Shown here: positions 1 to 12,806 of the stretch, piece after piece
Numbering within the stretch: the stretch's first letter is position 1
Layout of the letters: every line of letters begins with the position of its first letter
NCBI GenBank assembly: GCA_963697335.1
Contig: CAVONQ010000006.1
Location: 1-64,000, forward strand
DNA from: an uncultured cyanobacterium
GTDB taxonomy: Bacteria; Cyanobacteriota; Cyanobacteriia; PCC-6307; Cyanobiaceae
DNA length: 64,000 nucleotides
Direction of reading: 5' to 3'
Program-made: the position numbers and the translations under genes
The notes under the pieces: model-generated
The model's input: the letters and a program-made list of their open reading frames with translations, nothing else
Database searches by the model: none
What the model was told of the DNA's origin: nothing

Positions 1-145
1 CCAGGAGCATCTGGCTTTTCTCCTGCCGTCCACGGGCAATGCGCTGCAAGGCGATCGTGGCCGACTCCACGATCGCCTCCCGGCCCGCCAACTCAGGCGG
101 CCGCGCCCCCGCACCAGGAGAAAACGGATTGCTGGTGGGGTCCAT
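1..145 (-). CDS. AAA-family ATP-binding protein, N-terminal part (runs off window start)
   Basis: Not in ORF track; manual translation from ATG at 145: MDPTSNPFSPGAGARPPELAGREAIVESATIALQRIARGRQEKSQMLL, the NPFxPGAGxxPPxLAGR start typical of AAA_16-type ATPases just ahead of the Walker A motif. Confidence 0.75.
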   Translation of the reverse strand, partial: MDPTSNPFSPGAGARPPELAGREAIVESATIALQRIARGRQEKSQMLL

Positions 146-246
146 GCTGCGTGGCGTCAAGTTGAAAAGAGATATCGCAATCTTATCGATGTATGGCCGG
201 TTTATCAATGTATGGCAAGGCCTCCGGTGCATTCCGTTGTCGGCGC

Positions 247-1962
247 TCAGCAGCGCAGCGCCTCCCGATGGGCACTCAGAAACTTCTCCTGCTCCCGACT
301 GAACGGCCGAATCAGGTTCACCCCCTCGATTCCCCAGCAGCGCAAGGCCTCCCGGGCTGCCGCGTGTTCACAGATCAGCTGTCCGCCCCCATCGAAGCTG
401 ATCCAGTGGCGATCAAACAGTTTGTCCACATGGGTGGAGAGCAGCAGGCCATTGGATCCGCTCAGCCGTTCGCTGTTGTCGCAGGATCGCCAGGGTTTGA
501 TGTGGCTGGCCACCAGGAACTCCTGCCGCGCCAGCCCCGTGACCCGGCAGGCCTGCTCCAGCTCCGACACCCGATGGCGAAATAACCCCTGCCCCAGCCG
601 CGCCTTGGTGAGCGCATCGCGCTCCGTGCTGCTGGGCACCTCCCGCAACCGCTGCATGTCATCGAGCAGCGCGGCGGTGTACTCCCCCTCCTCCGCCAGC
701 ACCACCAGGTGCACCCGCAACGCCGGATCGGCGTGCTCCTCGATCAGCTGGAGCAACAGCAGCCCCAGCGCTGCGCAGTCGCAGCAGGGCTTCTGGGTAG
801 TCGGATGCTGGTGAGAAGAGGTGTCGCCTGACGTTGCGCTTGCCCTTGCGGGTCAGCGTGTCGGTGATCACCTCCACGATCCAGGCACTGCCCGGCCAGT
901 TGGCCTTGATGTGCTCAGGTGCCTCCCTGGCCTTGAGCTCCCAGGTGGTGTCGCGGCCATGCTTCTCCTCCTGATCCGTTGCCGTGAAAGGGATCTGCCG
1001 TTTTCCCTGGAACTGGCAGCGATCTGGCGGTAGAGGGTCTTCTGGTTCGATTTGACGGTTAGGAGCACGTCGGCCCCCTGCTCCAGGCACCACTGAAAAA
1101 CGGGCGGGTGGTGTGCAGGGCATCCGCCTGGATCAGCACGCCTTCCAGCTCCAGGGTGCTCAGCAGCTCTTTGAGGGCAGCCCGTTCACTGGATTCTCCG
1201 GTGTCGTAGGTCGTCTGGGCCAGGGCGACGCCGAGAGCCCGGGCATAGACCGTGACCTGGGCGACGAACCGATGGCTGCCGTCTTCCGTCTCCACTGCAG
1301 AGCCGCGCAGCGTCTTGCCATCGCACACCAGTTGGTCCAAACCCTCAGCCCCGCCTGGGATCTGGCTGATCATCCAGGCCTGGAGCACCTGGCCGAATTC
1401 CTGCAGGTGGGCCTTATTGAACAGGTAAAGGAAGGTGGCATCCGACGGCCAGCGCTTGAAATCGAAGCCCAGGGTCTCGTTCAACGCCTCACGATGCCGC
1501 CGGGCAAAGGCCTCGAGATCACGGGAGCTGCGGCAACCGCTCAGGATCCCCAGCACCGCCACCAGCAGCAGGAACCACTGCGGGTAGCGCACCCCACGGC
1601 GGTAGCGGCCATCGGGGATGGCCTTGAGGAAGTTGATCAGGTCATCCGGTGCGGCCTGATCAATTGCGGCGGAGCGTTTATCCAGGCTTTCGCTCAGCCC
1701 GGCCAGGTACACCCCCTGGTTGCCCCGGCCTGTGCTGGTGCTGATCGGGCTGTGGCGTTCCGGCAGCAGAGGTTGCAGCAGCTCAAAGAACGTCTGCGGC
1801 ACCAGGGCCTGGCGCAGCGGCTGCCAGTTCACCCGCACCAGCCAGCCCTCCTAGCTCCAGTTCTCCCCCGCTGAGCCGAACTCCGGCGGCTTGGTGGATG
1901 TAGCCGCCGTCGGTTTCCTGCCGGTAAGTCTGTTTGTGGTTCACCCACCAGTAGGAGGGCAC
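247..1962 (-). pseudogene. HNH endonuclease (YWWVN-type N-terminus, HNH_2-type C-terminus), split by an IS fragment
   Basis: GTG at 1962 gives MPSYWWVNHKQTYRQETDGGYI, then a frameshifting deletion and TAG stop, then WLVRVNWQPL...GNQGVYLAGLSESL (to 1683); it resumes in frame at 768 (LGLLLLQLIEE...RLGQGLFR...CRVTG...ASHIKPW...NGLLL...DKLFD). Confidence 0.8.
769..1685 (-). mobile_element. ISAs1-family (H-repeat) transposase fragment, frameshifted and C-terminally truncated
   Basis: DLINFLKAIPDGRYRRGVRYP, PSDATF, DGKTLRGS, IQADALHT, VKSNQKTL and HGRDTTWEL motifs spread over three frames; flanked by CCAG at 765-768 and 1682-1685. Confidence 0.85.
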
Positions 1963-2012
1963 GGATTCAGACAGGGCTGGCCTCTTTGTAGCCGGGACGA
2001 GGCTGGCTGTCC

Positions 2013-2399
2013 TCAGGTGGCCCGTCTCGACGCAAAGACTTCCTCACCCCGTTGCTCGCGGAACCCCTCCAGCCGCTGGCGGCACAGCTGCAGCAGCGCG
2101 TCGCGCTCGCTGTCGTTCAGCTCCTCAGCACCGATCAGGCTGGCGAGCCCATCGCTGGTGCGGGTGATGCCGTTGCCGGTGAACACGCGGCCCACCATCA
2201 GTTTCACCCGCTCTGTGTAGTAATCGATCTGGGTTACGTCTTCGCCCAGGATCCGCCGGGCCACGTCCTGCGCTGGGGCGGGGCTGCGGCGGCCGAGCAG
2301 TTCCATGAGCATCAGCGGTTGGTTGATGTGGCTCATGCGCATCTGCTCGGCGATGTATTCGCGGAGGCGGAGGAAGGCAGCGGAGGGGGCCGGGGGCAT
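2013..2399 (-). pseudogene. Copy A: 5' fragment (128 aa) of HNH-HIT fusion gene
   Basis: MPPAPSAAFLRLREYIAEQMRMSHINQPLMLMELLGRRSPAPAQDVARRILG...EQRGEEVFA, highly similar to the starts at 4748 and 6662; ends before the HNH domain. Confidence 0.8.
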
Positions 2400-2436
2400 G
2401 GGGGAATCCTGGCCGGGGTGAGACGGGGGTGGCACT
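2398..2436. repeat. Cassette-junction repeat, type X, copy 1
   Basis: ATGGGGGAATCCTGGCCGGGGTGAGACGGGGGTGGCACT, near-identical to 3155-3192. Confidence 0.9.
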
Positions 2437-2503
2437 GGTGGAGGAGAAGCCCATGCCAGGTGCCATGCCTTTGCTTGCCCCCTCAACCAGCCCGAAGGAA
2501 CTA

Positions 2504-2535
2504 ATGTGTGAGGCCCTCACGGCGAGGTCACACAT
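2504..2535 (+). promoter_or_regulatory. Inverted repeat, probable vapBC autorepression operator
   Basis: ATGTGTGA (2504-2511) ... TCACACAT (2528-2535), overlapping the antitoxin ATG. Confidence 0.55.
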
Positions 2536-2737
2536 GGCCACGAATCTCGCTCTCGATCAGGATCTGCTCGATCACGCCTTCCGTGTGAGCGGTGAGCCCA
2601 CAAAGAAGGCCGCCGTGACCCGTGCCCTTCAGGAGTTCATCGCGCGCCGGGAGCAGCGACAGGTTGCCGAGCTCTTCGGCAAGCTCGAGTGGGACCCCGG
2701 CTACGACTACAAGGCCGAACGGGAACGCCAGCGGTGA
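2534..2737 (+). CDS. vapB: VapB-family antitoxin
   Basis: MATNLALDQDLLDHAFRVSGEPTKKAAVTRALQEFI (RHH-like TNxxLDxxL...TKKAAV); GTGA overlap with the PIN gene. Confidence 0.85.
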   Translation: MATNLALDQDLLDHAFRVSGEPTKKAAVTRALQEFIARREQRQVAELFGKLEWDPGYDYKAERERQR

Positions 2738-3177
2738 GCCTGCTGGTCGACACCTCGGTCTGGTCGCTGGCCTTTCGCCGTGATGGCCAGCCAGGCGTGC
2801 CTGAGGTGGTCGCCCTCCGTGCCGCTCTCCAGGGTGCCGAGCAGGTCTTCACCACGGGATTGGTGCTCCAGGAGGTCCTCCAGGGTTTTTCCGGCCCCAA
2901 AAACCGAGAGCAGCTCGTGGAGCGCCTTTCCGCCCTCGCCTTCCTCCAGCCTGACAAGCAGGACCACATTGCAGCAGCCGAAATCCGCAATGTCTGCCGC
3001 CGCCGAGGGATCCAGATCGGCACCATCGATGCCCTGCTAGTTCAACTCTGCCAGCGCTATGAGCTGACGCTGCTGACAACCGACAAGGACTTTCAGGCAG
3101 CCTCTCAGCAGGTGGAGTTCCGGTTGTGGGGAACGGCGGGAGGGTGGGGCAGAAATGGGGGCATCCTGGCTGGGTGA
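2734..3177 (+). CDS. vapC: VapC PIN-domain toxin
   Basis: LLVDTSVWS...VLQEVLQG...IGTIDALL...LLTTDKDF acidic PIN motifs; stop codon lies inside repeat X copy 2. Confidence 0.9.
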   Translation: MSLLVDTSVWSLAFRRDGQPGVPEVVALRAALQGAEQVFTTGLVLQEVLQGFSGPKNREQLVERLSALAFLQPDKQDHIAAAEIRNVCRRRGIQIGTIDALLVQLCQRYELTLLTTDKDFQAASQQVEFRLWGTAGGWGRNGGILAG

Positions 3178-3192
3178 GACGGGGGTGGCACT
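3155..3192. repeat. Cassette-junction repeat, type X, copy 2
   Basis: ATGGGGGCATCCTGGCTGGGTGAGACGGGGGTGGCACT vs 2398-2436. Confidence 0.9.
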
Positions 3193-3234
3193 TGTAAGAG
3201 GAGGAACACAGGCAAGCCAGGCCGCCATGTCAGC

Positions 3235-3333
3235 CGTGGCCAGCACAGCACCCGCCTCAACGACCAGTTGCGCCTCTGCTTTGTCTGGACAGAAGCTGGG
3301 CCAGAGGAGGTCGAGATCGTTGACGTCCACTGA
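3235..3333 (+). pseudogene. higB: HigB (RelE-family) toxin, C-terminal remnant
   Basis: Manual translation RGQHSTRLNDQLRLCFVWTEAGPEEVEIVDVH*, matching the HigB end GQHSIRINDQWRICFxW...VEIVDYH; N-terminal two-thirds missing. Confidence 0.8.
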
Positions 3334-3337
3334 CGTG

Positions 3338-3646
3338 ATGCTCGTGCCTCCGGGCGAGGTGCTGCTGGAGGAGTTCCTGCGGCCAATGGGGATCAGCCAG
3401 TACCGGTTGGCGCTGGCGATCGACGTGCCCGAAAGCCGCATCAACGCCATCGTCAAAGGGCGGCGGGCGATCACTGCTGACACCGATCTGCGCCTGTGCC
3501 GTTTCTTCGGCCTGACCGATGGTTTCTGGCTGCGGATTGCCCGGTGTCAACTACGTAAGAGGCAAGGGAGCCACGATCTGAAGCTGGCCAGGCAGGTTCT
3601 GGAGAATGTGCTGCCGGCGATCGAGCCCATCCAGCCAATGGCGTGA
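3338..3646 (+). CDS. higA: HigA-family HTH antitoxin with an 8-aa insertion
   Basis: PPGEVLLEEFLRPMGISQYRLALAIDVPESRINAIVKGRRAITADTDLRLCRFFG...FWLR. Confidence 0.9.
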   Translation: MLVPPGEVLLEEFLRPMGISQYRLALAIDVPESRINAIVKGRRAITADTDLRLCRFFGLTDGFWLRIARCQLRKRQGSHDLKLARQVLENVLPAIEPIQPMA

Positions 3647-3653
3647 GCAGGGC

Positions 3654-3784
3654 TGGCGGCTGCAGGGTGTTTGGGCCAGGTTTGGTCTGGGCGGCCCGTC
3701 AGGCTGGTGCTCCTGCTGGGATCCCTTCTGGCGTGATCGCGTGATAGCTGCAGCCAACCCGGCTCCAGCTGTGGCTGTGCCGCC
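3654..3784. repeat. Cassette-junction repeat, type Y (longest copy)
   Basis: 3654-3758 aligns with 6673-6778 (GGGCCAGG.TTGGT..TGGGCGGCCCGTCAGGC.GG.GC.CCTGCTGGGATCC..TCTGGCGTG); 3747-3784 aligns with 4764-4801 (GCTGCAGCCAACCCGGCTCC.G.TGTGGCTGTGCCGCC). Confidence 0.9.
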
Positions 3785-3918
3785 CCAGTCCCCAAACTCA
3801 CGCACGCAGCAACCCAGGGCCAGGAGAAGCAGGGCTCCCTCCAATGCACACGGCAGCTTCAGGCTGAAGCGCTGCACTGACACCCTCCCGGCAGAATGGC
3901 AACCGGATCAGAACCCCG

Positions 3919-4224
3919 ATGACCAGCACCAGCCCGCGGACCGAACAGGTGCTCAGCACCCTGCGGCTCCATCGTGGCGACTGGCAGAAGCGTTTCCACG
4001 TGGTCGATATCGGCGTCTTTGGCTCGGTGGCTCGTGGCGACGCCCGCCCCGACAGCGATGTCGACGTGTGGGTGCGGCTGGAGCCGCTGACCCCCTACGC
4101 CCTGGTGCACCTCAAGCAGGAACTGGAAACGCTGCTGAGCACGGCTGTGGATGTGGTGCGGTTGCGCGAGCGCATGAACCCTTCCCTCAAGCAGCGCATC
4201 CTTGAGGAAGGCCTGCGGCCATGA
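3919..4224 (+). CDS. MNT minimal nucleotidyltransferase antitoxin
   Basis: GVFGSVARGDARPDSDVDV (GSx10DxD motif), VDVV. Confidence 0.9.
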   Translation: MTSTSPRTEQVLSTLRLHRGDWQKRFHVVDIGVFGSVARGDARPDSDVDVWVRLEPLTPYALVHLKQELETLLSTAVDVVRLRERMNPSLKQRILEEGLRP

Positions 4225-4583
4225 GCGAAGGCTGCGGCCCGCTGCTGGATGACCTTCTGGCTGCCCTTGAACGTGCCAGCAGCAAGAGTCAGCCTCTACT
4301 CCAGGATCCTTCGCAAATCGAATCGGAACAGGGACGGGATCTGCTTGATGTGATCTGCATGCAGTTTCTGGCGGTCGGTGAGGCGCTCAAGCGATTCGAA
4401 CGCCACTGGCCTGGTCGTCTGCAAGCCGAATTCCCCTCGGTGGATTGGAGGGGTGCCATGGGGTTTCGCGATGTGATCGCCCATCAGTACTTCGATCTCG
4501 ACAGTGAACAGATCCTGCTGATCTGTGAGCAATCCCTGCCTGCGTTGATTGCGGCTGTTCGGGCGTTTCGACAGAGCCAATGA
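4221..4583 (+). CDS. HEPN (HepT/DUF86) RNase toxin
   Basis: VGEALK...WRGAMGFRDVIAHQYFDLD (Rx4HxY); ATGA overlap with MNT. Confidence 0.9.
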   Translation: MSEGCGPLLDDLLAALERASSKSQPLLQDPSQIESEQGRDLLDVICMQFLAVGEALKRFERHWPGRLQAEFPSVDWRGAMGFRDVIAHQYFDLDSEQILLICEQSLPALIAAVRAFRQSQ

Positions 4584-4748
4584 TCCGCCGGGCGATGTCC
4601 TGCGCCGGGGCCGGGCTGGCTGTTGCCTGGCAAATCCGTGGCCCAGCAGTTCCATGAGCATCAGCGGTTGGTCGATGGGTCTCATGCGCATGCGCTCGGC
4701 GATGTAGGCGCGGAGGCGCTCGTAGGTGGGGGAGGGGTGTGGGGGCAT
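4582..4748 (-). pseudogene. Copy B: short 5' fragment of HNH-HIT fusion gene
   Basis: MPPHPSPTYERLRAYIAERMRMRPIDQPLMLMELLG, then a frameshifting +17 nt insertion, then SPAPAQDIARRI; ends at the HEPN stop codon. Confidence 0.8.
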
Positions 4749-4752
4749 TGGG

Positions 4753-4801
4753 CGATGGTGGCGGCTGCAGCCAACCCGGCTCCGGGTGTGGCTGTGCCGC
4801 C
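4753..4801. repeat. Cassette-junction repeat, type Y, internally deleted copy
   Basis: 5' part GATGGTGGCGGCTGC shared with 6668-6682; 3' part shared with 3747-3784. Confidence 0.85.
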
Positions 4802-4847
4802 ACCGACGCCTGAGGCGTCTATACTTCCGTCTAAACACCTCGTTACC

Positions 4848-5108
4848 ATGGCCGCCGCCCCTTCGCGCCAGGCCCTGCGCCGCTGGGGCAACAGCCTTGG
4901 CATTCGCCTTCCTGCAGCCATCGCCCGGGAGGCTCGGCTGCAGGAAGATCAGGCCGTGGAACTCTCCGTCGTGGAAGATGGGGTACTGATCCGGCCGGTT
5001 CAGCATCGCCCGTCACTGGCCGAACGACTGGCGGCCTACGAGCCCATGCGTGGAGAACCCACAGAGGCTCTGGCTTTCAGGCCGCTCGGGGCTGAGGTTA
5101 TCGAGTGA
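4848..5108 (+). CDS. mazE: MazE/AbrB-family antitoxin
   Basis: RRWGNSLGIRLPAAIAREARLQEDQAVELSVVEDGVLIRPV. Confidence 0.9.
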   Translation: MAAAPSRQALRRWGNSLGIRLPAAIAREARLQEDQAVELSVVEDGVLIRPVQHRPSLAERLAAYEPMRGEPTEALAFRPLGAEVIE

Positions 5109-5488
5109 GCCCCCGCCGAGGGGTCCAGGTTTGGGTGCCCGATCGCGGTGACGTGATCTGGATCGACCACAACCCCCAGGCCGGCCGTGAGATGAAGGAT
5201 CACCATCCCTTTGCCGTCTTGTCCACAGCTTCCTTCCACAGCACCGTGGGCCTGGTCGTGGGTTGTGCGATGACCTCAGCTCCTTACAACCGTGGTTCCA
5301 CCCTTGCCGTGGATCTGGGCCCCATCCCCGATCGGCCGGGTGCCCATAGCTATGTGCTGTGCCAGCAACTCAAATCCTTCGACTGGCGCGCCAGGGGTGC
5401 ACGCCCCCATCCAATCGGACGTCTGCAGGACTCCCAGTTGGAGGAGGTGCTGGCGATCGTGGGGCAGATCCTTGGCTTGGTGGTCTGA
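5105..5488 (+). CDS. mazF: MazF/PemK-family toxin
   Basis: VPDRGDVIWIDHNPQAGREMKDHHPFAVLS...VLCQQLKSFDWRAR. Confidence 0.9.
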   Translation: MSPRRGVQVWVPDRGDVIWIDHNPQAGREMKDHHPFAVLSTASFHSTVGLVVGCAMTSAPYNRGSTLAVDLGPIPDRPGAHSYVLCQQLKSFDWRARGARPHPIGRLQDSQLEEVLAIVGQILGLVV

Positions 5489-5499
5489 GCCAAGGGCCT

Positions 5500-5616
5500 G
5501 CAAGTGAAAGCCGTGTTTTGCAGGCTGAACTGGAGCGTCTTGGTTTGAGCGAAGACGAGCTCAGTGCCGACTTCAAGGCCTGGCGGAAAGGACGCCCTGA
5601 GCAACCGTCGGCCTGA
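5500..5616 (+). pseudogene. Antitoxin C-terminal remnant
   Basis: ESRVLQAELERLGLSEDELSADFKAWRKGR* ending 2 nt before a PIN gene; no recognisable N-terminus. Confidence 0.5.
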
Positions 5617-5618
5617 GA

Positions 5619-5925
5619 GTGGAGCGCAAACGCCTGGTCCTGGACGCGAACATCCTCATTCGCTGAAGCCAACGTGGCCGAGGCTGCCGCCTACGTGACT
5701 GATCTCGCCAGGAAGAGAGGTCTTGATGCAGAGGTCTGCGCTGAGGCTTTGCTCAGCCTGCTGTTGATTGTCCAGGTTGTGGAAAACAGCGTTTTGGAGT
5801 CGGCCAAGGAGGAGGCCTTGGCGAGAATCCGCGACAAGGATGACTGGCCTGCCCTGGCGCTGGCCTTGCAATTGGAATGCGCCATATGGACCACCAACAC
5901 GGTGGAGCGTTACCTGGAGAGCTGA
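5619..5925 (+). pseudogene. PIN-domain toxin with internal deletions
   Basis: GTG start MERKRLVLDANILIR* (stop 5664-5666), then in another frame ...ARIRDKDDWPALALALQLECAIWT|TNTVERYL, lacking the usual WTxDxDF segment. Confidence 0.75.
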
Positions 5926-6154
5926 GCCCATCCCGTCCACCAAATGCCGCCGCGGGATCACCAAGCTGTGGCCCTCGCTTACCGGGTAGGCATCGGCGAT
6001 GCAGCGCCCCAGCTCGTTCTCCAGCAGCACCCGGCCGCTGCCCTCCAGCGCGCAGAACACACAGCCCGCTTCGCGGTGGCCGTAGCTGGCCTGCACACTG
6101 CTGAAGCAGAGCGCCTGCAGGTTGCTGATGGCGTCGGAGCAGCCCTGGTTCCAC

Positions 6155-6178
6155 CGCCGCGCGGAAGGCTGCGCCTAC
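6155..6178 (-). mobile_element. 24-bp miniature inserted element, copy 1
   Basis: Minus strand GTAGGCGCAGCCTTCCGCGCGGCG; interrupts HNH motif IIP|.NQG and creates a TAG stop. Confidence 0.65.
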
Positions 6179-6312
6179 GGGATGATGGGTGCCACCTCCA
6201 GGGCCCGCTGGTGCTCGAGCGTGCCGCAGCACTCGCAGCGGCCCCTTGCCCTGGTGAGCACCCGAACCTTCACCGCGCCGCTGATCGGGCTCCGGTGGCG
6301 GCTGCGGTGGGC

Positions 6313-6336
6313 GTAGCCGCAGGCTTCTGCGCAGCA
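6313..6336 (+). mobile_element. 24-bp miniature inserted element, copy 2
   Basis: GTAGCCGCAGGCTTCTGCGCAGCA followed by GTA; adds CCAEACGY in frame where copy A reads EEVFA without it. Confidence 0.7.
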
Positions 6337-6667
6337 GTACACCGTTTCGCCGCGCTGCTCGCGGAAGGCATCGAGGCGCTGGCGGCACAGCCGCTGCAGC
6401 GCATCCCGCTCAGCGTCACTGAGCTCATCGCCGCCGATCAGGCTGTAGGAGCAGTTGCCGTAGGCGGTGATGCCGTTGCCGCTGAGCACCTTGCCCACCA
6501 TCGGCTGCCCAGGATGCGCCGGGCCACGTCCTGCGCTGGGGCGGGGCTGCGGCGGCCGAGCAGTTCCATAAGCATGGGCGGTTGGTCGATGGGGCTCATG
6601 CCCATGCGCTTGGCGATGGTCTCGCGCAGGCGGAGGAAGGCAGCAGAGGGGGGCGGGGGCATGGAGT

Positions 6668-6778
6668 GATGGTGGCGGCTGCCGAGCGGCCGGGCCAGGG
6701 TTGGTTTTGGGCGGCCCGTCAGGCAGGCGCCCCTGCTGGGATCCGCTCTGGCGTGGCCGTGATGCGGCTGAAGCCATC
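6668..6778. repeat. Cassette-junction repeat, type Y, copy upstream of fragment C
   Basis: Aligns with 3654-3758 and 4753-4767. Confidence 0.9.
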
Positions 6779-6816
6779 ACGGCCAGCCGTTCGTGATTGT
6801 CCATTTCTGCGGTGTA

Positions 6817-6830
6817 TGGTGTATACACCA
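6817..6830 (+). promoter_or_regulatory. 14-bp perfect palindrome, probable antitoxin operator
   Basis: TGGTGTATACACCA immediately before GGAGG RBS (6831-6835) and ATG 6842. Confidence 0.6.
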
Positions 6831-6841
6831 GGAGGTTGGCC

Positions 6842-7090
6842 ATGCAACGCACCCAGATCTACCTGTCGGAGCCGGAGCGGCAAGGGCTGTTAGCCCTGGC
6901 CCAACGCAGCGGACGCAGCCAGAGCGCCCTGATCCGTGAAGCCATCGATCGCTTTCTGGAGAACAAACAGCCTGAAGAGCGGCTCGCCAAGCTTCGACAG
7001 GGGAGGGGCCTCTGGGCAGCCGGATCTGGTCCGCTGGATGGGCTGAAGTTGCGCCAGGAACTTGACCGCATCCCCCCCGAAGGCGGCTGA
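6842..7090 (+). CDS. CopG/RHH antitoxin
   Basis: MQRTQIYLSEPERQGLLALAQRSGRSQSALIREAIDRFL. Confidence 0.9.
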   Translation: MQRTQIYLSEPERQGLLALAQRSGRSQSALIREAIDRFLENKQPEERLAKLRQGRGLWAAGSGPLDGLKLRQELDRIPPEGG

Positions 7091-7491
7091 TGGCGTCCGC
7101 CGCGAATGGCTTGCTCGTGATCGACACGGATGTCTTGATCGACTACCTCCGCGATCAGCCCCTGGCGGTGGCATTCCTGGAAGGCTGCGATCAGCCTCTG
7201 GCGGCCTCTGTGGTGTCAATCGCTGAGCTCTACGTGGGTGTGCGCGAGGGGGTGGAGCGCCAGCGGTTGGATGCCTTTGTGTCGGCCTTTGAGGTGTTGC
7301 CGCTGGAGAAGGAGGCTGCGATGCAGGCGGGGCTGTGGCGCCGTCAGTACGGCCGCAGCCATGGCACGGGCCTCGCGGATGCCCTGATAGCTGCGAGTGT
7401 GCAGGCTGCCGGAGCAACTCTGGCCACGCTCAATCGGCGCCATTTCCTGATGCTCGCCCATGTGCTGGTTCCCTATGCGAAGGGAGGGTGA
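7090..7491 (+). CDS. vapC: VapC PIN-domain toxin
   Basis: VIDTDVLIDYLR...SIAELYVG...GLADALIAAS...ATLNRRHF. Confidence 0.9.
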   Translation: MASAANGLLVIDTDVLIDYLRDQPLAVAFLEGCDQPLAASVVSIAELYVGVREGVERQRLDAFVSAFEVLPLEKEAAMQAGLWRRQYGRSHGTGLADALIAASVQAAGATLATLNRRHFLMLAHVLVPYAKGG

Positions 7492-7697
7492 TCCTGAGCG
7501 GGCCCCGAACCGCTGGGGCGCAACAACCTGGGGCTCCGTCGTGGCGGCGCCGGCCCGGACAGCGCTGTCGACGAGCAAAGGGTCCTTGCCCGGCTGTACC
7601 GCGCTGGAGGCAACCTCACCACCAAGCCATCTGGTGTTCAAGACACCGCAACGGCCGCTTGATTCTTGCTGACTTCGCGGGGCTGGACGCACAGCGC

Positions 7698-7862
7698 CTA
7701 TCCCACTCCGCCGGAGCCGAGCGAGCGCAGAAGACCCCAGAGGCTGCCGCCGGCTTCGGGGCGCTCCACGCCCCGGTTCACAAACCACATGGTGGCCGCC
7801 ATGGCGTTGAGCGCCAGCACGGCCAGCCATACCCTCCATCCTTCCGGCAGCTTCATGGTCAT
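7698..7862 (-). CDS. Possible 54-aa single-pass membrane protein
   Basis: Manual: MTMKLPEGWRVWLAVLALNAMAATMWFVNRGVERPEAGGSLWGLLRSLGSGGVG*; below ORF-track cutoff. Confidence 0.35.
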   Translation of the reverse strand: MTMKLPEGWRVWLAVLALNAMAATMWFVNRGVERPEAGGSLWGLLRSLGSGGVG

Positions 7863-8022
7863 CGGTTCCGGCAACGGCGCCCATCATCTCCGGCGCGGTC
7901 ACCCCCTTCGAGCCTGAGCGGCTGGGCCTCGCCTTGCCTCGCTCCACCTCTCCCGTGCTCCCACCTTCCGGGTGTTCCGCAAGGGGCACGCGGTGATCGA
8001 GGTGCCAATGTGCTCCGCTGGA

Positions 8023-8283
8023 TCAGAAGATTCCCAGTGTTTTCTTCTTGCAGTAACCCGCCCCCACGTTCATCCAGCCCGAGTCGCAGGGTTTGCCGTC
8101 GGTAGGCTTCACCTGGTAATAGATGGGTGAGTTGCAGTGTTGCTTCAGGTCATTCACATAGCCGAGCGGGCACTCGTCATATCCCGGCAGTTTAGGAATC
8201 CGCTTCTGCGCCACGGCCGCGCTGGGGATCAACGCGGGTAGGGCGAGAAGCCCCATGACAAGCACAAGGGAAGGCTTTGGCAC
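8023..8283 (-). CDS. Small secreted Cys-containing hypothetical protein
   Basis: Signal-peptide-like N-terminus (..SAAVA|QK), four Cys in mature part; start uncertain (8283 or 8307). Confidence 0.65.
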   Translation of the reverse strand: MPKPSLVLVMGLLALPALIPSAAVAQKRIPKLPGYDECPLGYVNDLKQHCNSPIYYQVKPTDGKPCDSGWMNVGAGYCKKKTLGIF

Positions 8284-8535
8284 CGGGCAACCATTCAGCT
8301 GGTGCAACTCTAGGAGGGCTGACGTCGTGGCTTGGATCTGCCGAAGGTCTTGCCGTCGCGAATGCCGACGGCGATCACGTCCACGATCAAGTTGCTGGCA
8401 CCCATTGCGGAAAGGTAACCAATTCGATGGTCAGGCAGCGCCGCCCAGGCCATCTGTGACCCACTTTGGATCAGGCCTGCCATGCAGCTTGAAGCCCCTC
8501 CAGGCTGGCAACGGACAAGCCCCCCTCCTGATCCC

Positions 8536-10671
8536 ATGGCCAACACGCCTTCCCCCTCCGGCCTGGGACCTGATGGTGTGTGGTGGCGGATCCCGGCCCT
8601 GGACTGCGCCACGGAGGAGCTGGAGATTCGCCAGGCCCTGGAGGATGTGGCCGGCATTGCCGAGCTGCGCTTCCAGCTGGCCAGCCACAGCCTGCTGATC
8701 CGCGCCGATGCCTCCGCCCTGGCCCAGGCGGAAGCGGCGCTGCAGCGCCTGGGCTACCCGCCCCAGCGACTGGAGGGCAGCACGGCGTCCACGCCGCAGG
8801 CCTCCCCGGTTCCCTGGGGCCGGATGCTGCTGGCCCTGGCCCTCGCCGCCGCCGCGGAAGGGGTCAATGGGCTGGTGCCGGGCTCGCCGCCCCAGCAGGC
8901 CCTGGTGCTGGGGCTGTCGGCAAGTGCCATTGCGCTGGCCGGGCTGGCGGTGTACCTGAAGGGGCTGGCGGCCCTGCGCCATGGGCGGCTCAACATCAAC
9001 GCCCTGATGGCCGTGGCGGTGAGCGGGGCCTTCCTGATCGGTCACTGGCCGGAAGCAGGCATGGTGATGGCCCTCTACACCGTGGCCGAGGCGCTGGAGG
9101 CCCAGGCGGCAGACCGGGCCCGCCAGGCCATCGGCAGCCTGATGCAGCTAGCTCCCGATCTGGCCACGGTGGAGCTGCGACCTGGCGAGTGGGCCCGCAC
9201 CGAGGCGAGCAGTGTGGTTGTGGGCCAACGGCTGCGGGTGGAGCCGGGGGAGCGGATTCCCCTCGATGGGGTGGTGCTCAGCGGCCGCAGCGCCGTCAAC
9301 CAGGCCCCAGTCACCGGCGAGAGCCTGCCGGTGGAGAAGGCCAGCGGTGATCCGGTGTTTGCCGGCAGCCTGAACAGCGATGGCGCGCTGGAGATCCGCT
9401 CCACCTGCACGGCGGCCACCAGCACCCTGGCGCGGATCATCCACGCGGTGGAGGAGGCCCAGGCCTCCCGGGCGCCGATCCAGCGGTTTGTGGATCGCTT
9501 CGCGGCCCGCTACACGCCGGTGGTGTTCCTGCTGGCCCTGGCGGTGGCCCTGCTCAGCCCGTCGCTGCTGGGACTCACGCCCCTGGAGGCGGTGTACCGG
9601 GCCCTGGTGCTGCTGGTGATCGCCTGCCCCTGTGCCCTTGTGATCGCCACCCCGGTGACCCTGGTGAGTGCCCTCACCGCCGCCGCCCGGCGCGGCATCG
9701 TGATCAAGGGAGGACTGCACCTGGAGCAGGCCCGCACCCTGCGCCTGCTGGCCTTCGACAAGACCGGCACCCTCACCACCGGCCGCCCCAGACTGGAGGC
9801 CTTCGAGGTGCTGGCCGGCCGGGTTCCGGCCGACCAGCTGCGCCAGTGGGCCGCCTCCCTGGCCTGCCGCTCGGACCACCCGATCTCCCGCGCCATTGCG
9901 GCGGGGCTGGATGCTGAACGGCTGCAGGTGGAGGAGCTGAGCGTCAGCGGCGGCCGTGGTCTGAGCGGCCTGGTGGAGGGTCGGCACCTGTGGCTCGCCA
10001 GCCATCGCTGGATTCAGGAGCTGGGCCTCGACACCCCCGAGCTCAGGGAAATGGTCAGGCAGCAGGAGCAGCAGGCCCGCAGCGTCAGCCTGTTGGCCGA
10101 TGCCCAAGGGGTGCTCGCTCTCTGCGCCTCGGCCGATCCGCTCCGCCCTACTGCCGCCAGGGCCGTTGAGCGCCTGAAACAGCTCGGCCTCGACGTGGTG
10201 ATGCTCAGTGGCGACAACGCCCTCACGGCTGAGCTGATCGGCCGGCAGGCCGGCATCGAGCGGGTTCACAGCGGCCTGCTGCCGCAGCAGAAGCTGGAGC
10301 TGGTGGTCGCCCTCCAGAACGAGGGGCCCACCGGCATGGTGGGCGATGGCATCAATGACGCGCCCGCCCTGGCCGGGGCCACGGTGGGTTTTGCCATGGG
10401 GGCTGCCGGCAGTGACACCGCCATGGACACCGCCGATGTGGTGGTGATGGACGACGATCCGATCCGCCTGGCGGAAACCATCGTCCTGTCGCGCCAGACC
10501 TGGCGGGTGCTCTGGCAGAACATCGGCCTCGCCCTGGGCATCAAGGGGGCCTTTCTGCTGCTCACCCTCACCGGCAGCGCCACGATGTGGCAAGCCGTCG
10601 TCGCCGACATGGGCACCAGCCTGCTGGTGATCGCCAATGGGTTGCGGCTGCTGCGTCAGCGCTGGGGTTGA
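8536..10671 (+). CDS. Heavy-metal P1B-type ATPase (CadA/ZntA-like)
   Basis: LDCATEE metal-binding domain, TGES, CPC, DKTGT, HP, GDGINDAP. Confidence 0.95.
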   Translation: MANTPSPSGLGPDGVWWRIPALDCATEELEIRQALEDVAGIAELRFQLASHSLLIRADASALAQAEAALQRLGYPPQRLEGSTASTPQASPVPWGRMLLALALAAAAEGVNGLVPGSPPQQALVLGLSASAIALAGLAVYLKGLAALRHGRLNINALMAVAVSGAFLIGHWPEAGMVMALYTVAEALEAQAADRARQAIGSLMQLAPDLATVELRPGEWARTEASSVVVGQRLRVEPGERIPLDGVVLSGRSAVNQAPVTGESLPVEKASGDPVFAGSLNSDGALEIRSTCTAATSTLARIIHAVEEAQASRAPIQRFVDRFAARYTPVVFLLALAVALLSPSLLGLTPLEAVYRALVLLVIACPCALVIATPVTLVSALTAAARRGIVIKGGLHLEQARTLRLLAFDKTGTLTTGRPRLEAFEVLAGRVPADQLRQWAASLACRSDHPISRAIAAGLDAERLQVEELSVSGGRGLSGLVEGRHLWLASHRWIQELGLDTPELREMVRQQEQQARSVSLLADAQGVLALCASADPLRPTAARAVERLKQLGLDVVMLSGDNALTAELIGRQAGIERVHSGLLPQQKLELVVALQNEGPTGMVGDGINDAPALAGATVGFAMGAAGSDTAMDTADVVVMDDDPIRLAETIVLSRQTWRVLWQNIGLALGIKGAFLLLTLTGSATMWQAVVADMGTSLLVIANGLRLLRQRWG

Positions 10672-10674
10672 GCG

Positions 10675-11820
10675 ATGCCACCACGCCGGGTTGCCAGCAT
10701 CGCCACGGGCCTCAGCGCTCTGCTGCTGGGCTGGGGCGCCGTTCTCCCCCTGGCGGCTGCGGTTCCGCCGCAGCCGGTGTTGCGGGTGGGCCTGGTGGAC
10801 GGTGCACCCCCCTGCAGCAGCCGTGAAGCCGGAGACTGGCGGGGGCTGGCGGTGGATCTCTGGGGCCGGATCGCCACCCGGGAGCGGATTCCCTTTGTGG
10901 TGTCGGAGTGGCCTTCGGTGCAGGCGATGCTGGAGGCCAGCCGCAGCGGGGAGCTGGATGTGGCGGTGGGCTGCATCAACGTCTCCCCCGACCGCCTGGA
11001 GCGCTACCGCTTCAGCCTTCCCTTCCAGGAGGACGGCCTGGCGGTGATGGTGCTGCAGAGCCGCCTCGACCTGGGGCGTTCCTTCCTGGAGGCCCTGCTC
11101 ACCCCCACCCTGTTGCAGCTGCTGGGCGGCTATCTCACGGCGATCGCCCTGCTGGCCCTGCTCACCAGACGGGTGGAGCGGGGCGCCGAGCAGCCCAGGG
11201 CGTTCAGCCGCGAAGGTCTGCGCCGCTTCAGTGCCGTGTTCCAGGTGCTTGCCACCGGGCCAGGCAGCAACACGCTGGTGTCCACCATCCGCGGCAACGG
11301 CATCGTGCTGATGGCCTATCTGGTGAGGATCGTGTCGGCCTCACTGCTGGTGGGCTATCTCACGGTGAACGTGGCCCGCCAGGTGCAGGGCACGCCCAGC
11401 GCCAGGATCCGCGCCGAGGGCGATCTGCGTGGCCTGAGGGTGGCGGTACGCAGCGGCACCGTGAGCGAGGCCCTGTTGCGGGAGCTGAATGCCGGCAGCA
11501 GGGCCTTGAAGGTCACGATCGTGCCCCTGGACAACATCCGTTCGGGGGTGGATCTGCTGCTTGCCCGCCGCGTCGATGCCGTGCTTGGCGACAACCTGCA
11601 GCTTCGCTACCTTCTCACCAACGCCCCCCTGCAGGGTTCCCGGCCCAGCCTCGCCCTGCAGGGCATCCGCCCCGAATCGCAGGCGTTTGCCCTGGCCCCT
11701 GGCCTGCCGGCCGCCACGGCCGAGCGCATTGACCACGCCATCAGCGCTCTCAAGCGCAATGGCGTGGTCAGTGCGCTGCGCGAGCAGTCAACGGACCCTG
11801 CAGGCTCATCAACCCAGTGA
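10675..11820 (+). CDS. Family-3 substrate-binding protein split by two TM helices (GluR0-like architecture)
   Basis: Signal peptide, PBP lobe 1, TM, re-entrant-like segment, TM, PBP lobe 2. Confidence 0.75.
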   Translation: MPPRRVASIATGLSALLLGWGAVLPLAAAVPPQPVLRVGLVDGAPPCSSREAGDWRGLAVDLWGRIATRERIPFVVSEWPSVQAMLEASRSGELDVAVGCINVSPDRLERYRFSLPFQEDGLAVMVLQSRLDLGRSFLEALLTPTLLQLLGGYLTAIALLALLTRRVERGAEQPRAFSREGLRRFSAVFQVLATGPGSNTLVSTIRGNGIVLMAYLVRIVSASLLVGYLTVNVARQVQGTPSARIRAEGDLRGLRVAVRSGTVSEALLRELNAGSRALKVTIVPLDNIRSGVDLLLARRVDAVLGDNLQLRYLLTNAPLQGSRPSLALQGIRPESQAFALAPGLPAATAERIDHAISALKRNGVVSALREQSTDPAGSSTQ

Positions 11821-11978
11821 GCGGAGAGAGGCAGGCCCGATCCACATCTGCAGACCCGAAATTCAATGGGTTCAATGAGGACCTGAATGGGGCTTCTCAC
11901 GGAGCTTGCATCCCATGCTGGCCATTTGACGCTGATCCGGCCGATCGTGCGGCTTGATCATGCCCTTGAATTCCGTGA

Positions 11979-12806
11979 TTGATCCTTGCGGTGACAGCCA
12001 TCGTGTGCCCTGATGCTCTGCTCGGGGCCGCCGATCCCCCCGTGTTCCGGATCCTGGGCGCCATGGGTCGCTCCGAGGTGCTGCTCACCGCCGACCATGC
12101 CGGCCGCGCCATCCCCGGCTCCTTGGCACGACTCCAGCTCAGTGAGGATGTGCTGGGCACCCATGTGGCCTGGGATCTGGGCGTGGCTGCCCTGGCCGAG
12201 GGTCTTGCGGCGCGGCTGGATGCCTTCGCGATTCTGCACAACTATTCGCGGCTGGTGATCGACGTGAACCGTCCGCTCCAGGCGCCGGATTCGATCGTGA
12301 GCCTCAGCGAGCACACCGCCATTGCGGCTAACGCCACTCTCACCCCCGCCCAGCGCCATCAGCGGATCGAGGCGCTGTTCGAGCCCTACCACAACCGCAT
12401 CGCGGCCGAGCTCGCTGCCCGTGCCCGCCGCGCACAGCCCAGTGTCCTGGTTTGCCTGCATAGCTTCACCCCCGTCTATGCCGGGGTGGCGCGGCCCTGG
12501 CACGTGGGTGTGCTGTACGGCCGCGATGGTCGGCTGGCTGAACGGGTGCTGCGGAAGCTCCGGCAGGAGCCTGGCCTGCGGGTGGGCGACAACGAGCCCT
12601 ACGCGGCGAGCGAGCTCAGCGACCACACCCTGGTGGTGCATGGCGAGAGGCGCCGGATTCCCCACGTGGAGCTGGAGGTCCGCCAGGATCTGCTGGCCAC
12701 GGCGGCGGGTCAGCGGGCCTGGGCCGGGCGCCTCGCCACGGTGTTGAAGGCCGCCCTGGCGGAGGGGATCCCTCCACTGAAGGCGGATGGATCGCCACTA
12801 AGATGA
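11979..12806 (+). CDS. N-formylglutamate amidohydrolase family protein
   Basis: ADHAGRAIP, HVAWDLG, SRLVIDVNR, HSFTP, GDNEPY, ELEVRQDL. Confidence 0.9.
   Translation: MILAVTAIVCPDALLGAADPPVFRILGAMGRSEVLLTADHAGRAIPGSLARLQLSEDVLGTHVAWDLGVAALAEGLAARLDAFAILHNYSRLVIDVNRPLQAPDSIVSLSEHTAIAANATLTPAQRHQRIEALFEPYHNRIAAELAARARRAQPSVLVCLHSFTPVYAGVARPWHVGVLYGRDGRLAERVLRKLRQEPGLRVGDNEPYAASELSDHTLVVHGERRRIPHVELEVRQDLLATAAGQRAWAGRLATVLKAALAEGIPPLKADGSPLR

Follow-up and report, generated by a model that had tools for sequence, protein, structure and literature searches.

The analysis concerns the opening 64 kb (the window) of contig C6 from an uncultured cyanobacterium of the family Cyanobiaceae (genome G000; 2.58 Mb in 18 contigs). 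Between positions 2013 and 7491, the window holds five cargo intervals of toxin-antitoxin (TA) genes on the plus strand. They are parted by divergent remnants (relics) of a single minus-strand gene, derived from its 5' end and the DNA upstream of it; we call this gene HNH-HIT or the anchor gene. From left to right, the intervals contain VapB/VapC, HigA with a higB remnant, MNT/HepT, MazE/MazF followed by a decayed antitoxin/PIN_2 pair, and CopG/VapC; adjacent Pfam pairs assign this cargo to predicted type II TA families. We fetched and mapped 20 loci from the genus and five from two other genera. The array is a hypervariable row of TA cassettes whose chromosomal position is fixed: it lies immediately upstream of a conserved HNH-HIT gene, in a neighborhood of defense genes. 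Below, genomes are numbered G and loci L; L021, L022, L025, and L035 lie in G013, G012, G016, and G018, respectively, L049 in G197, L053 in G241, and L045 is contig C16 of G000 itself.

Layout of the array in the window

In each unit of the array, a single small TA operon, whose transcription leads away from the anchor gene, is preceded by a relic, which comprises one of two intergenic (IG) elements, IG-A or IG-B, plus 0 to ~250 of the first anchor codons (Table 1). The relics are non-coding direct repeats, 70 to 95% alike. A preliminary reading made from the DNA letters without database searches (the sequence-only reading) had described the unit as a variably truncated HNH-HIT start, a shared intergenic element, and a variable TA cargo, and this description is correct. 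The homologous anchor and upstream DNA that it placed between the modules is borne out by self-BLAST, with E values from 1e-7 to 2.5e-61: positions 2044-2401 match 6347-6664 (72.6%, E 2.5e-61), 2244-2403 match 4576-4752 (75.7%, E 2e-30), 4576-4768 match 6507-6682 (74%, E 3e-29), 2398-2459 match 3155-3216 (82.5%, E 1e-7), 3654-3763 match 6673-6783 (78.8%, E 8e-17), and 3747-3784 match 4764-4801 (94.7%, E 1e-8). The three peptide variants it quoted agree with our translations.

Rather than being scattered genome-wide, the anchor fragments are confined to this locus, and blastn, tblastn, and a motif scan found no further anchor or IG copy in the 2.58-Mb genome. The repeats are not the ends of a known insertion sequence (IS) or miniature inverted-repeat transposable element, and no transposon ends were recognized: every relic repeats in direct orientation, the genome has no IG or anchor motif outside this locus, and the sole transposase fragment near the array belongs to an unrelated IS in the flank. 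Misassembly, a risk raised by the sequence-only reading, is unlikely because the array copies are only 70 to 88% alike and a metagenome contig covers window positions 2298-6065. This 3,767-nt contig, from run X1, has 38 differences from the window, though X1 may be the source sample; all metagenome comparisons (runs X1, X9, and others) used contigs. Joints in X1, such as those from 2436 to 5989 and from 4801 to 2385, were considered as evidence of excision and rejected as repeat-path ambiguities or other strains; we weigh them neither way.

Table 1. Features of the array and its flanks, by position in the window.
Feature	Position	Strand	Evidence
Left flank, 3' part of conserved HNH_2-domain gene	247..756	-	Pfam HNH_2 E 3e-12
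IS remnant within flank gene	765..1681		DDE_Tnp_1_assoc in ORF 1059-1838
Conserved 3' flank of terminal HNH-HIT gene	1897..2032		84-88% to DNA after full-length gene in L026/L022/L027
Terminal HNH-HIT copy, N-terminal domain only, 129-aa open frame	2013..2402	-	tblastn q1-125, 79%
IG-A, long form	2403..2533	+	core end ...GGTGGCACT at 2415-2436
VapB-VapC cassette	2534..3177	+	Pfam VapB 7e-16, PIN 1e-15
Minimal relic, ~3 anchor codons and IG-A core	3155..3216		82.5% to 2398-2459
higB remnant and intact HigA antitoxin	3227..3646	+	HTH_3 2e-7
Relic of IG-B alone, zero anchor codons	3654..3793		78.8% to 6673-6783; 94.7% to 4764-4801
MNT-HepT cassette	3919..4583	+	NTP_transf_2 4e-14, HepT-like 1e-14
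Relic, anchor codons 1-52 with +17-nt indel, and internally deleted IG-B	4576..4810	-	tblastn q1-36, q39-52
MazE-MazF cassette	4848..5488	+	MazE 9e-12, PemK 4e-18
Decayed antitoxin/PIN_2 cassette	5500..5925	+	PIN_2 3e-16, profile positions 37-111 only
Long relic, N-terminal domain with -41-nt deletion, decayed HNH, cut HIT	5926..6662	-	tblastn q1-53, q68-256
IG-B	6663..6796	+	self-BLAST and IG-B alignment
CopG(RHH)-VapC cassette	6842..7491	+	RHH_1 1e-6, PIN 6e-15
Conserved right array flank	7664..8005		75-87% in 10 relatives' loci, always at array edge
P-type ATPase	8482-10671		beyond right flank

The sequence-only reading had counted six TA modules on the plus strand. Pfam agrees with the count and the strand (VapB/PIN, HTH_3 of the HigA type, MNT/HepT, MazE/PemK, a PIN_2 remnant, and RHH/PIN), but details of two modules need correcting. 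The first vapC has lost its stop codon near 3140 by a TGA-to-GGA mutation, so that its open reading frame (ORF) extends to 3177. The higB gene is down to its last ~30 codons: the frame at 3196 encodes the C terminus of the L028 HigB, and ~275 nt of L039 are missing from the window, as inferred from alignment coordinates. Several cassettes recur elsewhere. The VapBC cassette is present in 6 other loci at 82 to 92.5% identity, beside different neighbors, the MazE-MazF cassette is common to L023, L026, and L024 at 80 to 86%, and the decayed antitoxin/PIN_2 cassette is 92.5% identical to L037. An ORF pair at L049:4299-4993 carries the same Pfam families as the CopG-VapC cassette with near-equal E values, the sequences themselves not being aligned directly.

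The anchor copy that the sequence-only reading saw at 2013-2436 is homologous as claimed, but rather than a chance fragment it is what remains of the resident gene at the array's terminus, minus HNH and HIT. The loss is in frame, leaves 608 bp fewer than in L026, and recurs in L025 (G016:C1). Open 129-aa genes for the N-terminal domain alone thus occupy this position in two species (window 2013-2402 and L025:7280-7615), and they may still be functional because stand-alone homologues of ~150 aa are common in the protein library. Among the other relics, the minimal one at 3155-3216 has the left joint to VapBC seen in L026 and L032 and the right joint to HigA seen in L039; the IG-B relic at 3654-3793 aligns with 20 other IG-B copies, and the relic at 4576-4810 is 93% identical to one in L034 and 92% to one in L028. 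In the long relic at 5926-6662, the 41-nt deletion is a frameshift, an internal stop is present, and HIT ends at about residue 256.

On the left, the flank gene at 247-756 is 85 to 94% identical in L022, L025, L026, L027, and L032. The IS remnant interrupts the N-terminal part of this HNH_2-family gene and has related copies on contigs C3, C9, and C7; relatives run from 776 straight into 1682 without it, and the IS-less joint from 764 to 1682 is present in contigs of all four runs compared. On the right, two small minus-strand ORFs separate the array from the P-type ATPase gene, one encoding a secreted-looking, Cys-rich 94-aa protein (8023-8307) and the other a membrane-like 58-aa protein (7698-7874); the region of both is conserved at the right edge of the array in relatives.

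Spread of the arrays and exchange of their parts

An N-terminal-domain query matches 22 of the 31 other genomes of the genus, mostly as 3 to 10 clustered same-strand fragments, and 62 of 251 genomes in 19 of the 64 genera of the family; no matches were found in the 24 other families sampled. The mapped arrays share their flanks: the HNH_2 side lies to the left, and a match to window 7664-8005, next to a P-type ATPase gene or dcd, lies to the right. In every array mapped, the most complete anchor copy is at the left end, next to the left flank.

The border between relic and cargo is sharp. The IG-A core, a stretch of ~41 nt after the start codon, ends ...GGTGGCACT and occurs in 28 of 51 units, in all of which it ends at one base (...GGCAC T) ahead of 14 downstream sequence classes. 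IG-B is ~150 to 170 nt long and was found in 21 copies, most of which end near ...GCCGCCCCAGTCCC, with at least 5 leader types beyond this point as judged by eye from the alignment. Both motifs are also present in five arrays of two other genera. The idea that the IG elements form hairpins resembling attC sites was dropped because an alignment of 15 IG-A leaders yields 6 pairs and 0 compensatory changes. Single-sequence DNA folding gives one strong hairpin, at 4745-4850 (z -5.2), and a scan of 1900-7700 for consensus promoters and terminators returned nothing useful.

TA genes dominate the cargo. Across 17 arrays we counted by hand 114 inter-relic gaps (71 in the genus and 43 in other genera), 75 of which contain TA-specific Pfam families: VapBC, MazEF, HicAB, BrnTA, MNT-HepT/HEPN, TacAT, Unstab_antitox/ParE, PIN_2, DUF433-DUF5615, and Gp49-HTH. 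A further 5 contain a DUF6883/DUF4926 pair, 3 a helix-turn-helix (HTH) domain only, 2 IS elements, and 3 other genes; nothing was recognized in the remaining 26, a class that is an upper bound because ORFs were called by a simple rule. One small IG-B-linked cassette recurs in L022, L025, L026, L027, L028, L031, and L034 with a common leader and start (ATGCAGGAAATCC...). It has no Pfam match and is an unclassified, perhaps antitoxin-like family.

We aligned the first 200 nt of the 51 relics that have a start codon region and found that their lesions are shared. A 24-nt insertion carrying TAG (H1) is present in 9 copies and a +17-nt insertion (H2) in 20, and a 41-nt deletion (H3) is recurrent; all three are found beside varied cargo, whether the upstream type is IG-A, IG-B, or another. 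For H1 and H2, all four states exist (29, 13, 7, and 2 copies), the class with H1 present and H2 absent hanging on one clear copy; for H2 and H3, all four likewise exist among classifiable copies (9, 4, 4, and 2). Because these disabling indels recur across cargo and occur in all combinations, the alignment indicates that dead relics propagate and recombine, both by internal recombination and by spreading after the loss of coding capacity. The nearest relative of a relic sits in another genome in 43 of 51 cases; judging from this pattern, relics are either older than the species or exchanged between species.

The arrays as wholes also differ in both content and order among relatives, the cassette variation that the sequence-only reading had opposed to a fixed order. 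Between G000 and G012, flank genes are 91% identical, yet the window's six cargo sets have zero blastn matches in L022, and matches between the two arrays are limited to relics and flanks. Conversely, G012 and G016 have common blocks at 94.5% (1,840 nt), 97.2% (643 nt), and 96% (174 nt) identity, whereas their flank genes are 71 to 87% identical, and the two larger blocks stand in opposite order in the two arrays. Block borders between genomes fall inside relics. Cassette pieces of the window also appear at 97 to 100% identity in sediment metagenomes of other studies; in one X9 contig, vapC is matched with 4 differences and the remaining 426 nt lie off the window.

The anchor gene, its neighbors, and nearby integrons

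The intact anchor protein of G013 has 333 residues, with an N-terminal domain of ~125 aa, HNH at 148-191, and HIT at 221-313. The N-terminal domain, which may have a winged-helix, Mrr_N-like fold, has no match in Pfam, NCBIfam, or PDB sequences (including a profile search against the latter), and in the Atlas it falls only in unnamed clusters. At E <= 1e-5, 3,714 database proteins match the anchor; among the matches listed, those with names come from Cyanobium and Synechococcus and bear the label "HNH endonuclease" or "HIT domain-containing protein." The N-terminal domain alone matches 1,081 representative clusters at E <= 1e-3, and its distant members either share the three-domain architecture or are stand-alone proteins of ~150 aa. 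Many database anchor proteins are ~266 aa long with HNH and HIT intact, and forms without the first 66 codons may be expressed from Met67. Against PADLOC defense models, the anchor gives weak domain-level matches only (ThsC HIT, 8e-8; PtuB HNH, 4e-5).

In the single-copy genomes G133, G269, and G234, a co-directional gene for a ~620-aa Schlafen-type (PF09848) helicase lies 3' of HNH-HIT (L051:7712-10711, L052:5181-8178, and L054:5027-8075, the helicase of L054 being in two pieces), and the two together look like a predicted two-gene nuclease-helicase unit. In other genomes, either an HNH_2 gene (the case in the window) or an integron is the downstream neighbor. A BrxA-family gene is located just past the HNH_2 flank gene in G241 (L053:9919-10812), which suggests a BREX-type (bacteriophage exclusion) system within the same island.

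The sequence-only reading had noted no integrase and no attC site. This is true within the window, but the genome has an intact integron integrase gene on another contig (C16:4662-5627; TIGR02249, 466 bits, cutoff 265), and attC arrays abut HNH-HIT in four relatives. For these sites we built a covariance model, R1, from 9 local hairpin sites near intI or after HNH-HIT (24 pairs, 15 with compensatory changes). R1 finds 23 attC sites in 427 kb: beside intI (L041 to L045), just past the HNH-HIT 3' end in G013, G023, and G009, and, once, after intI in L035. Its match in L045 (C16:1067-1169) is 3.5 kb downstream of the intact intI, near the contig start. In G018, a 60-nt site after the HNH-HIT gene was read by eye. 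Within the 64-kb window and inside the 20 array loci, R1 has zero matches, the best score with filters off in 1-10000 being 7 bits, and the strict consensus RYYYAAC...GTTRRRY is absent from 1900-7700. No recombinase gene was found in 1-10000, no tRNA or tmRNA in 1-12000 by ARAGORN, and no Rfam family in 1-10000.

The four relatives are G013, G009, G018, and G023, in which an array of canonical attC cassettes runs up to the HNH-HIT 3' end. The cassettes have 41 to 58% GC and are co-directional with intI, because in 14 of 16 the longest ORF is opposite to the R1 match strand. The last attC abuts the stop codon of the convergent HNH-HIT gene, and the TA array therefore lies outside the integron; it is neither an integron nor a cluster of attC sites lacking an integrase (CALIN), and in the four relatives it stands back to back with an integron. 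Whether HNH-HIT is itself an integron cassette was considered and rejected: the attC after its stop was assigned to the neighboring cassette because of the cassette ORF orientation and because three attC types are found behind the same gene end. In G013, the cassette abutting the HNH-HIT stop codon lies between two attC sites (L021:13064-15337) and carries a complete Septu pair (PtuA, 489 bits; PtuB, 309 bits), with a decayed intI 2 kb further. A tyrosine recombinase beside an anchor fragment in G018 is also an integron integrase (TIGR02249, 453 bits, cutoff 265); within L035:4496-5931 (contig C79), this full-length intI begins ~35 nt away from an anchor fragment that has lost its 5' part (aa 113-293 remain), and the TA and relic array is on the 5' side of intI, unlike in G013 and G023. 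IntI as a local engine of the TA arrays was rejected, the intact intI genes of G013, G012, G002, G019, and G000 being far from the arrays, with no IG or anchor sequence in their neighborhoods.

Candidate mechanisms and related systems

The reading that we rate best, to which we give about an even chance, is that the relics serve as portable homology for recombination-driven gain, loss, and exchange of cassettes and that addiction retains the TA cargo. It keeps the sequence-only reading's proposal of the HNH-HIT 5' region as a homology-based landing pad. We infer three of its parts: that homologous recombination drives the changes, that new units enter by a single crossover, and that addiction keeps the TA cargo in place. 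Recombination between relics, on the same chromosome or with the DNA of relatives, would add, delete, reorder, and exchange cassettes. Loop-out between two relics would delete a unit and release a circle of cassette and relic, and such a circle or fragment, entering by a single crossover beside the resident gene, would add one more unit of relic and cassette. Beside a full-length gene, this crossover would leave, in order, the full gene, IG, the new cargo, a truncated relic, IG, and the old cargo, which matches the observed arrangement. A double crossover with a linear fragment from a relative could insert or replace units, and new truncation end points would come from occasional illegitimate joins or deletions. 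Addiction modules would be the cargo that best resists such deletions, hence the dominance of TA genes; their persistence would account for the TA bias and for the tight packing from stop codon to next relic.

Several points weigh against this reading. The IG-cargo junction is sharper than random joining predicts, several cargo 3' ends lie within a few bases of the stop codon, and recombination between repeats covers the inheritance of these junctions but not their first origin; because the fixed junction is unexplained at its origin, a nuclease- or recombinase-primed model is kept alive. Some relics are only ~40 to 60 nt long at ~85% identity, a poor RecA substrate. No recombination event was seen directly, the joints in X1 contigs being ambiguous repeat paths. 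One genome per species was compared, which puts within-species indel breakpoints beyond the reach of the sample, and the contrast between cassette and flank identity comes from few flank genes, with G016 having two arrays and possible paralogues.

An alternative is that working HNH-HIT alleles from different relatives, each with its own TA pair, were added serially by homology-facilitated illegitimate recombination, each truncating the prior resident. Consistent with this, the most complete copy is terminal in every mapped array and intact in G013, G009, G010, and G018, distal fragments tend to be shorter (L022, L021, and L027), the 3' truncation points differ, and copies inside one array are diverged. 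The terminal gene of G013 and its next relic are 3.3% apart over the first ~100 nt, as if a recent event had occurred there. The sequence-only reading took each relic for such an allele; against this view speak the disabling indels shared across cargo and present in all combinations, as expected if relics recombine and spread after death. H1 (with its TAG), H2, and H3 recur beside different cargo and IG types, and in L034 four consecutive units all have H2 and all skip aa 54-65 by tblastn. Moreover, the longest relic of the window is the farthest from the terminal end, and cassette order is permuted among genomes. We consider serial addition unlikely.

Unlikely as well is a site-specific break or strand exchange at the IG-cargo border, made by HNH-HIT, acting like yeast HO or a homing endonuclease, or by IntI acting in trans on a non-canonical site, that would drive cassette capture and replacement. 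It would fit the single junction base ahead of 14 leader classes in 28 units, the IG-B end at ...GCCGCCCCAGTCCC with its at least 5 leaders by eye, the cargo 3' ends at stop codons, the conservation of IG motifs across genera, and the nuclease gene at every array end. The genome also encodes an intact IntI, integron arrays abut the same gene in four relatives, and the accessible text of a study of a homing endonuclease driving segmental amplification (PMC13096335) offers a precedent. However, the IG-A leaders have no conserved secondary structure (6 pairs, 0 compensatory), and the attC model and consensus have no match in the array. In the arrays mapped, many terminal copies are frameshifted or domain-deleted (G000, G012, G016, and G007), yet G012 and G016 share near-identical blocks, and the intact intI genes are far from the arrays with canonical cassettes of their own. 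In a nuclease-primed variant, which we regard as improbable, HNH-HIT or an IG-bound N-terminal domain would nick or break the IG-cargo border beside its own gene, and the conserved side would invade another relic, whether of the same array or of incoming DNA, and copy its cassette. Were this variant true, the array would be an integrase-free capture and switching system, comparable in bacteria to HO/MAT and adjoining a classical integron back to back, and a new class of cassette system.

Very little probability goes to a passive fossil of ancient tandem duplications, vertical inheritance, and decay in which exchange has ended. Relic lineages are common to several species and genera, and many toxins and relics are decayed, as such a fossil would have it; against it stand unshared window cargo sets between 91% identical flanks (G000 and G012), blocks 94 to 97% identical between species with flank genes at 71 to 87% and in permuted order, and near-identical cassette pieces in unrelated metagenomes (the X9 vapC contig). 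A TA array of the integron or CALIN type has the least: its small co-oriented, TA-rich units resemble those of chromosomal integrons, and the genome has IntI genes, with integron parts beside the array in G013, G009, G018, and G023, but all 23 R1 sites are beside intI or past the HNH-HIT 3' end and none is between TA units, canonical cassettes have 41 to 58% GC with ORFs opposite to the R1 strand in 14 of 16, and the last attC, at the stop of the convergent HNH-HIT gene, leaves the TA array outside.

Under the homology-based reading, the array would be a second route, besides attC and an integrase, to an expandable and exchangeable row of cassettes, with the relics of one gene as recombination handles. 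It offers a concrete reason for the pile-up of TA genes in estuarine and freshwater picocyanobacteria. HNH-HIT is also a good marker for defense islands in the family, since this one gene has an integron, a nuclease-helicase pair, and a TA array grouped about it. TA counts and islands in these cyanobacteria have been reported (PMC5498466, PMC12413379, and bioRxiv 10.64898/2025.12.17.694815), and the accessible parts of these three sources contain no mention of HNH or of the array layout. We found no published description of this layout in a literature search that was thin on subscription journals.

As defined in the accessible text of Cury et al. 2016 (PMC4889954) for integrons and CALINs, a CALIN has at least 2 attC sites. 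Like chromosomal integron arrays and CALINs, the array lines up many small cassettes at a single chromosomal site, abounds in TA and defense genes, and has a high turnover between relatives, and like chromosomal integrons it has a repeated element at every cassette border. Unlike in integrons, these borders are relics of the 5' end and upstream region of a neighboring gene rather than attC hairpins, IntI and apparently attI are missing from the site, the GC content of the cargo is native-like and high, and the units face away from the anchor gene. In four relatives, a true integron, with canonical attC sites, occupies the opposite side of that gene. Orphan toxin-immunity arrays downstream of rhs and cdiA are tandem modules that each retain a conserved fragment of the main gene. 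The fragments give homology with the full-length copy, and growth of the arrays is proposed to occur when resident modules are displaced by incoming ones. There, the fragment is fused in frame to a variable toxin-coding 3' end, with immunity genes following it, whereas here it comes from the 5' end, is on the strand opposite to the cargo, and is unfused, the cargo being an independent divergent TA operon.

The pdif modules of Acinetobacter, by the accessible part of their description, are likewise small discrete units with short repeated borders, many of them TA modules, shuffled between replicons. Their borders are 28-bp XerC/D sites of alternating orientation, moved by Xer on plasmids, whereas here the borders are chromosomal direct repeats of gene origin, 40 to 900 nt long; this comparison is by repeat orientation alone. 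Homology-facilitated illegitimate recombination has one homologous anchor, its far end being variable and without homology. The relics resemble this in the variety of their truncation points, but that process makes single insertions, unlike the propagating, recombining dead anchors and the fixed cargo-side junction found here. Yeast HO/MAT is a nuclease-driven system of cassette switching. In phage T6, the homing endonuclease SegB drives segmental amplification, according to the accessible text of PMC13096335. With both, the array has in common a nuclease gene on site, a sharp conserved-variable border, and tandem repeats; unlike in both, HNH-HIT cleavage is only putative and many arrays are without an intact copy. 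Islands that target tRNA genes, such as tycheposons, have tRNA or tmRNA genes or partial copies of them at their borders, in contrast to this locus, where neither ARAGORN (1-12000) nor Rfam (1-10000) found a tRNA. The array is best filed closest to the known cassette arrays and orphan-module arrays.

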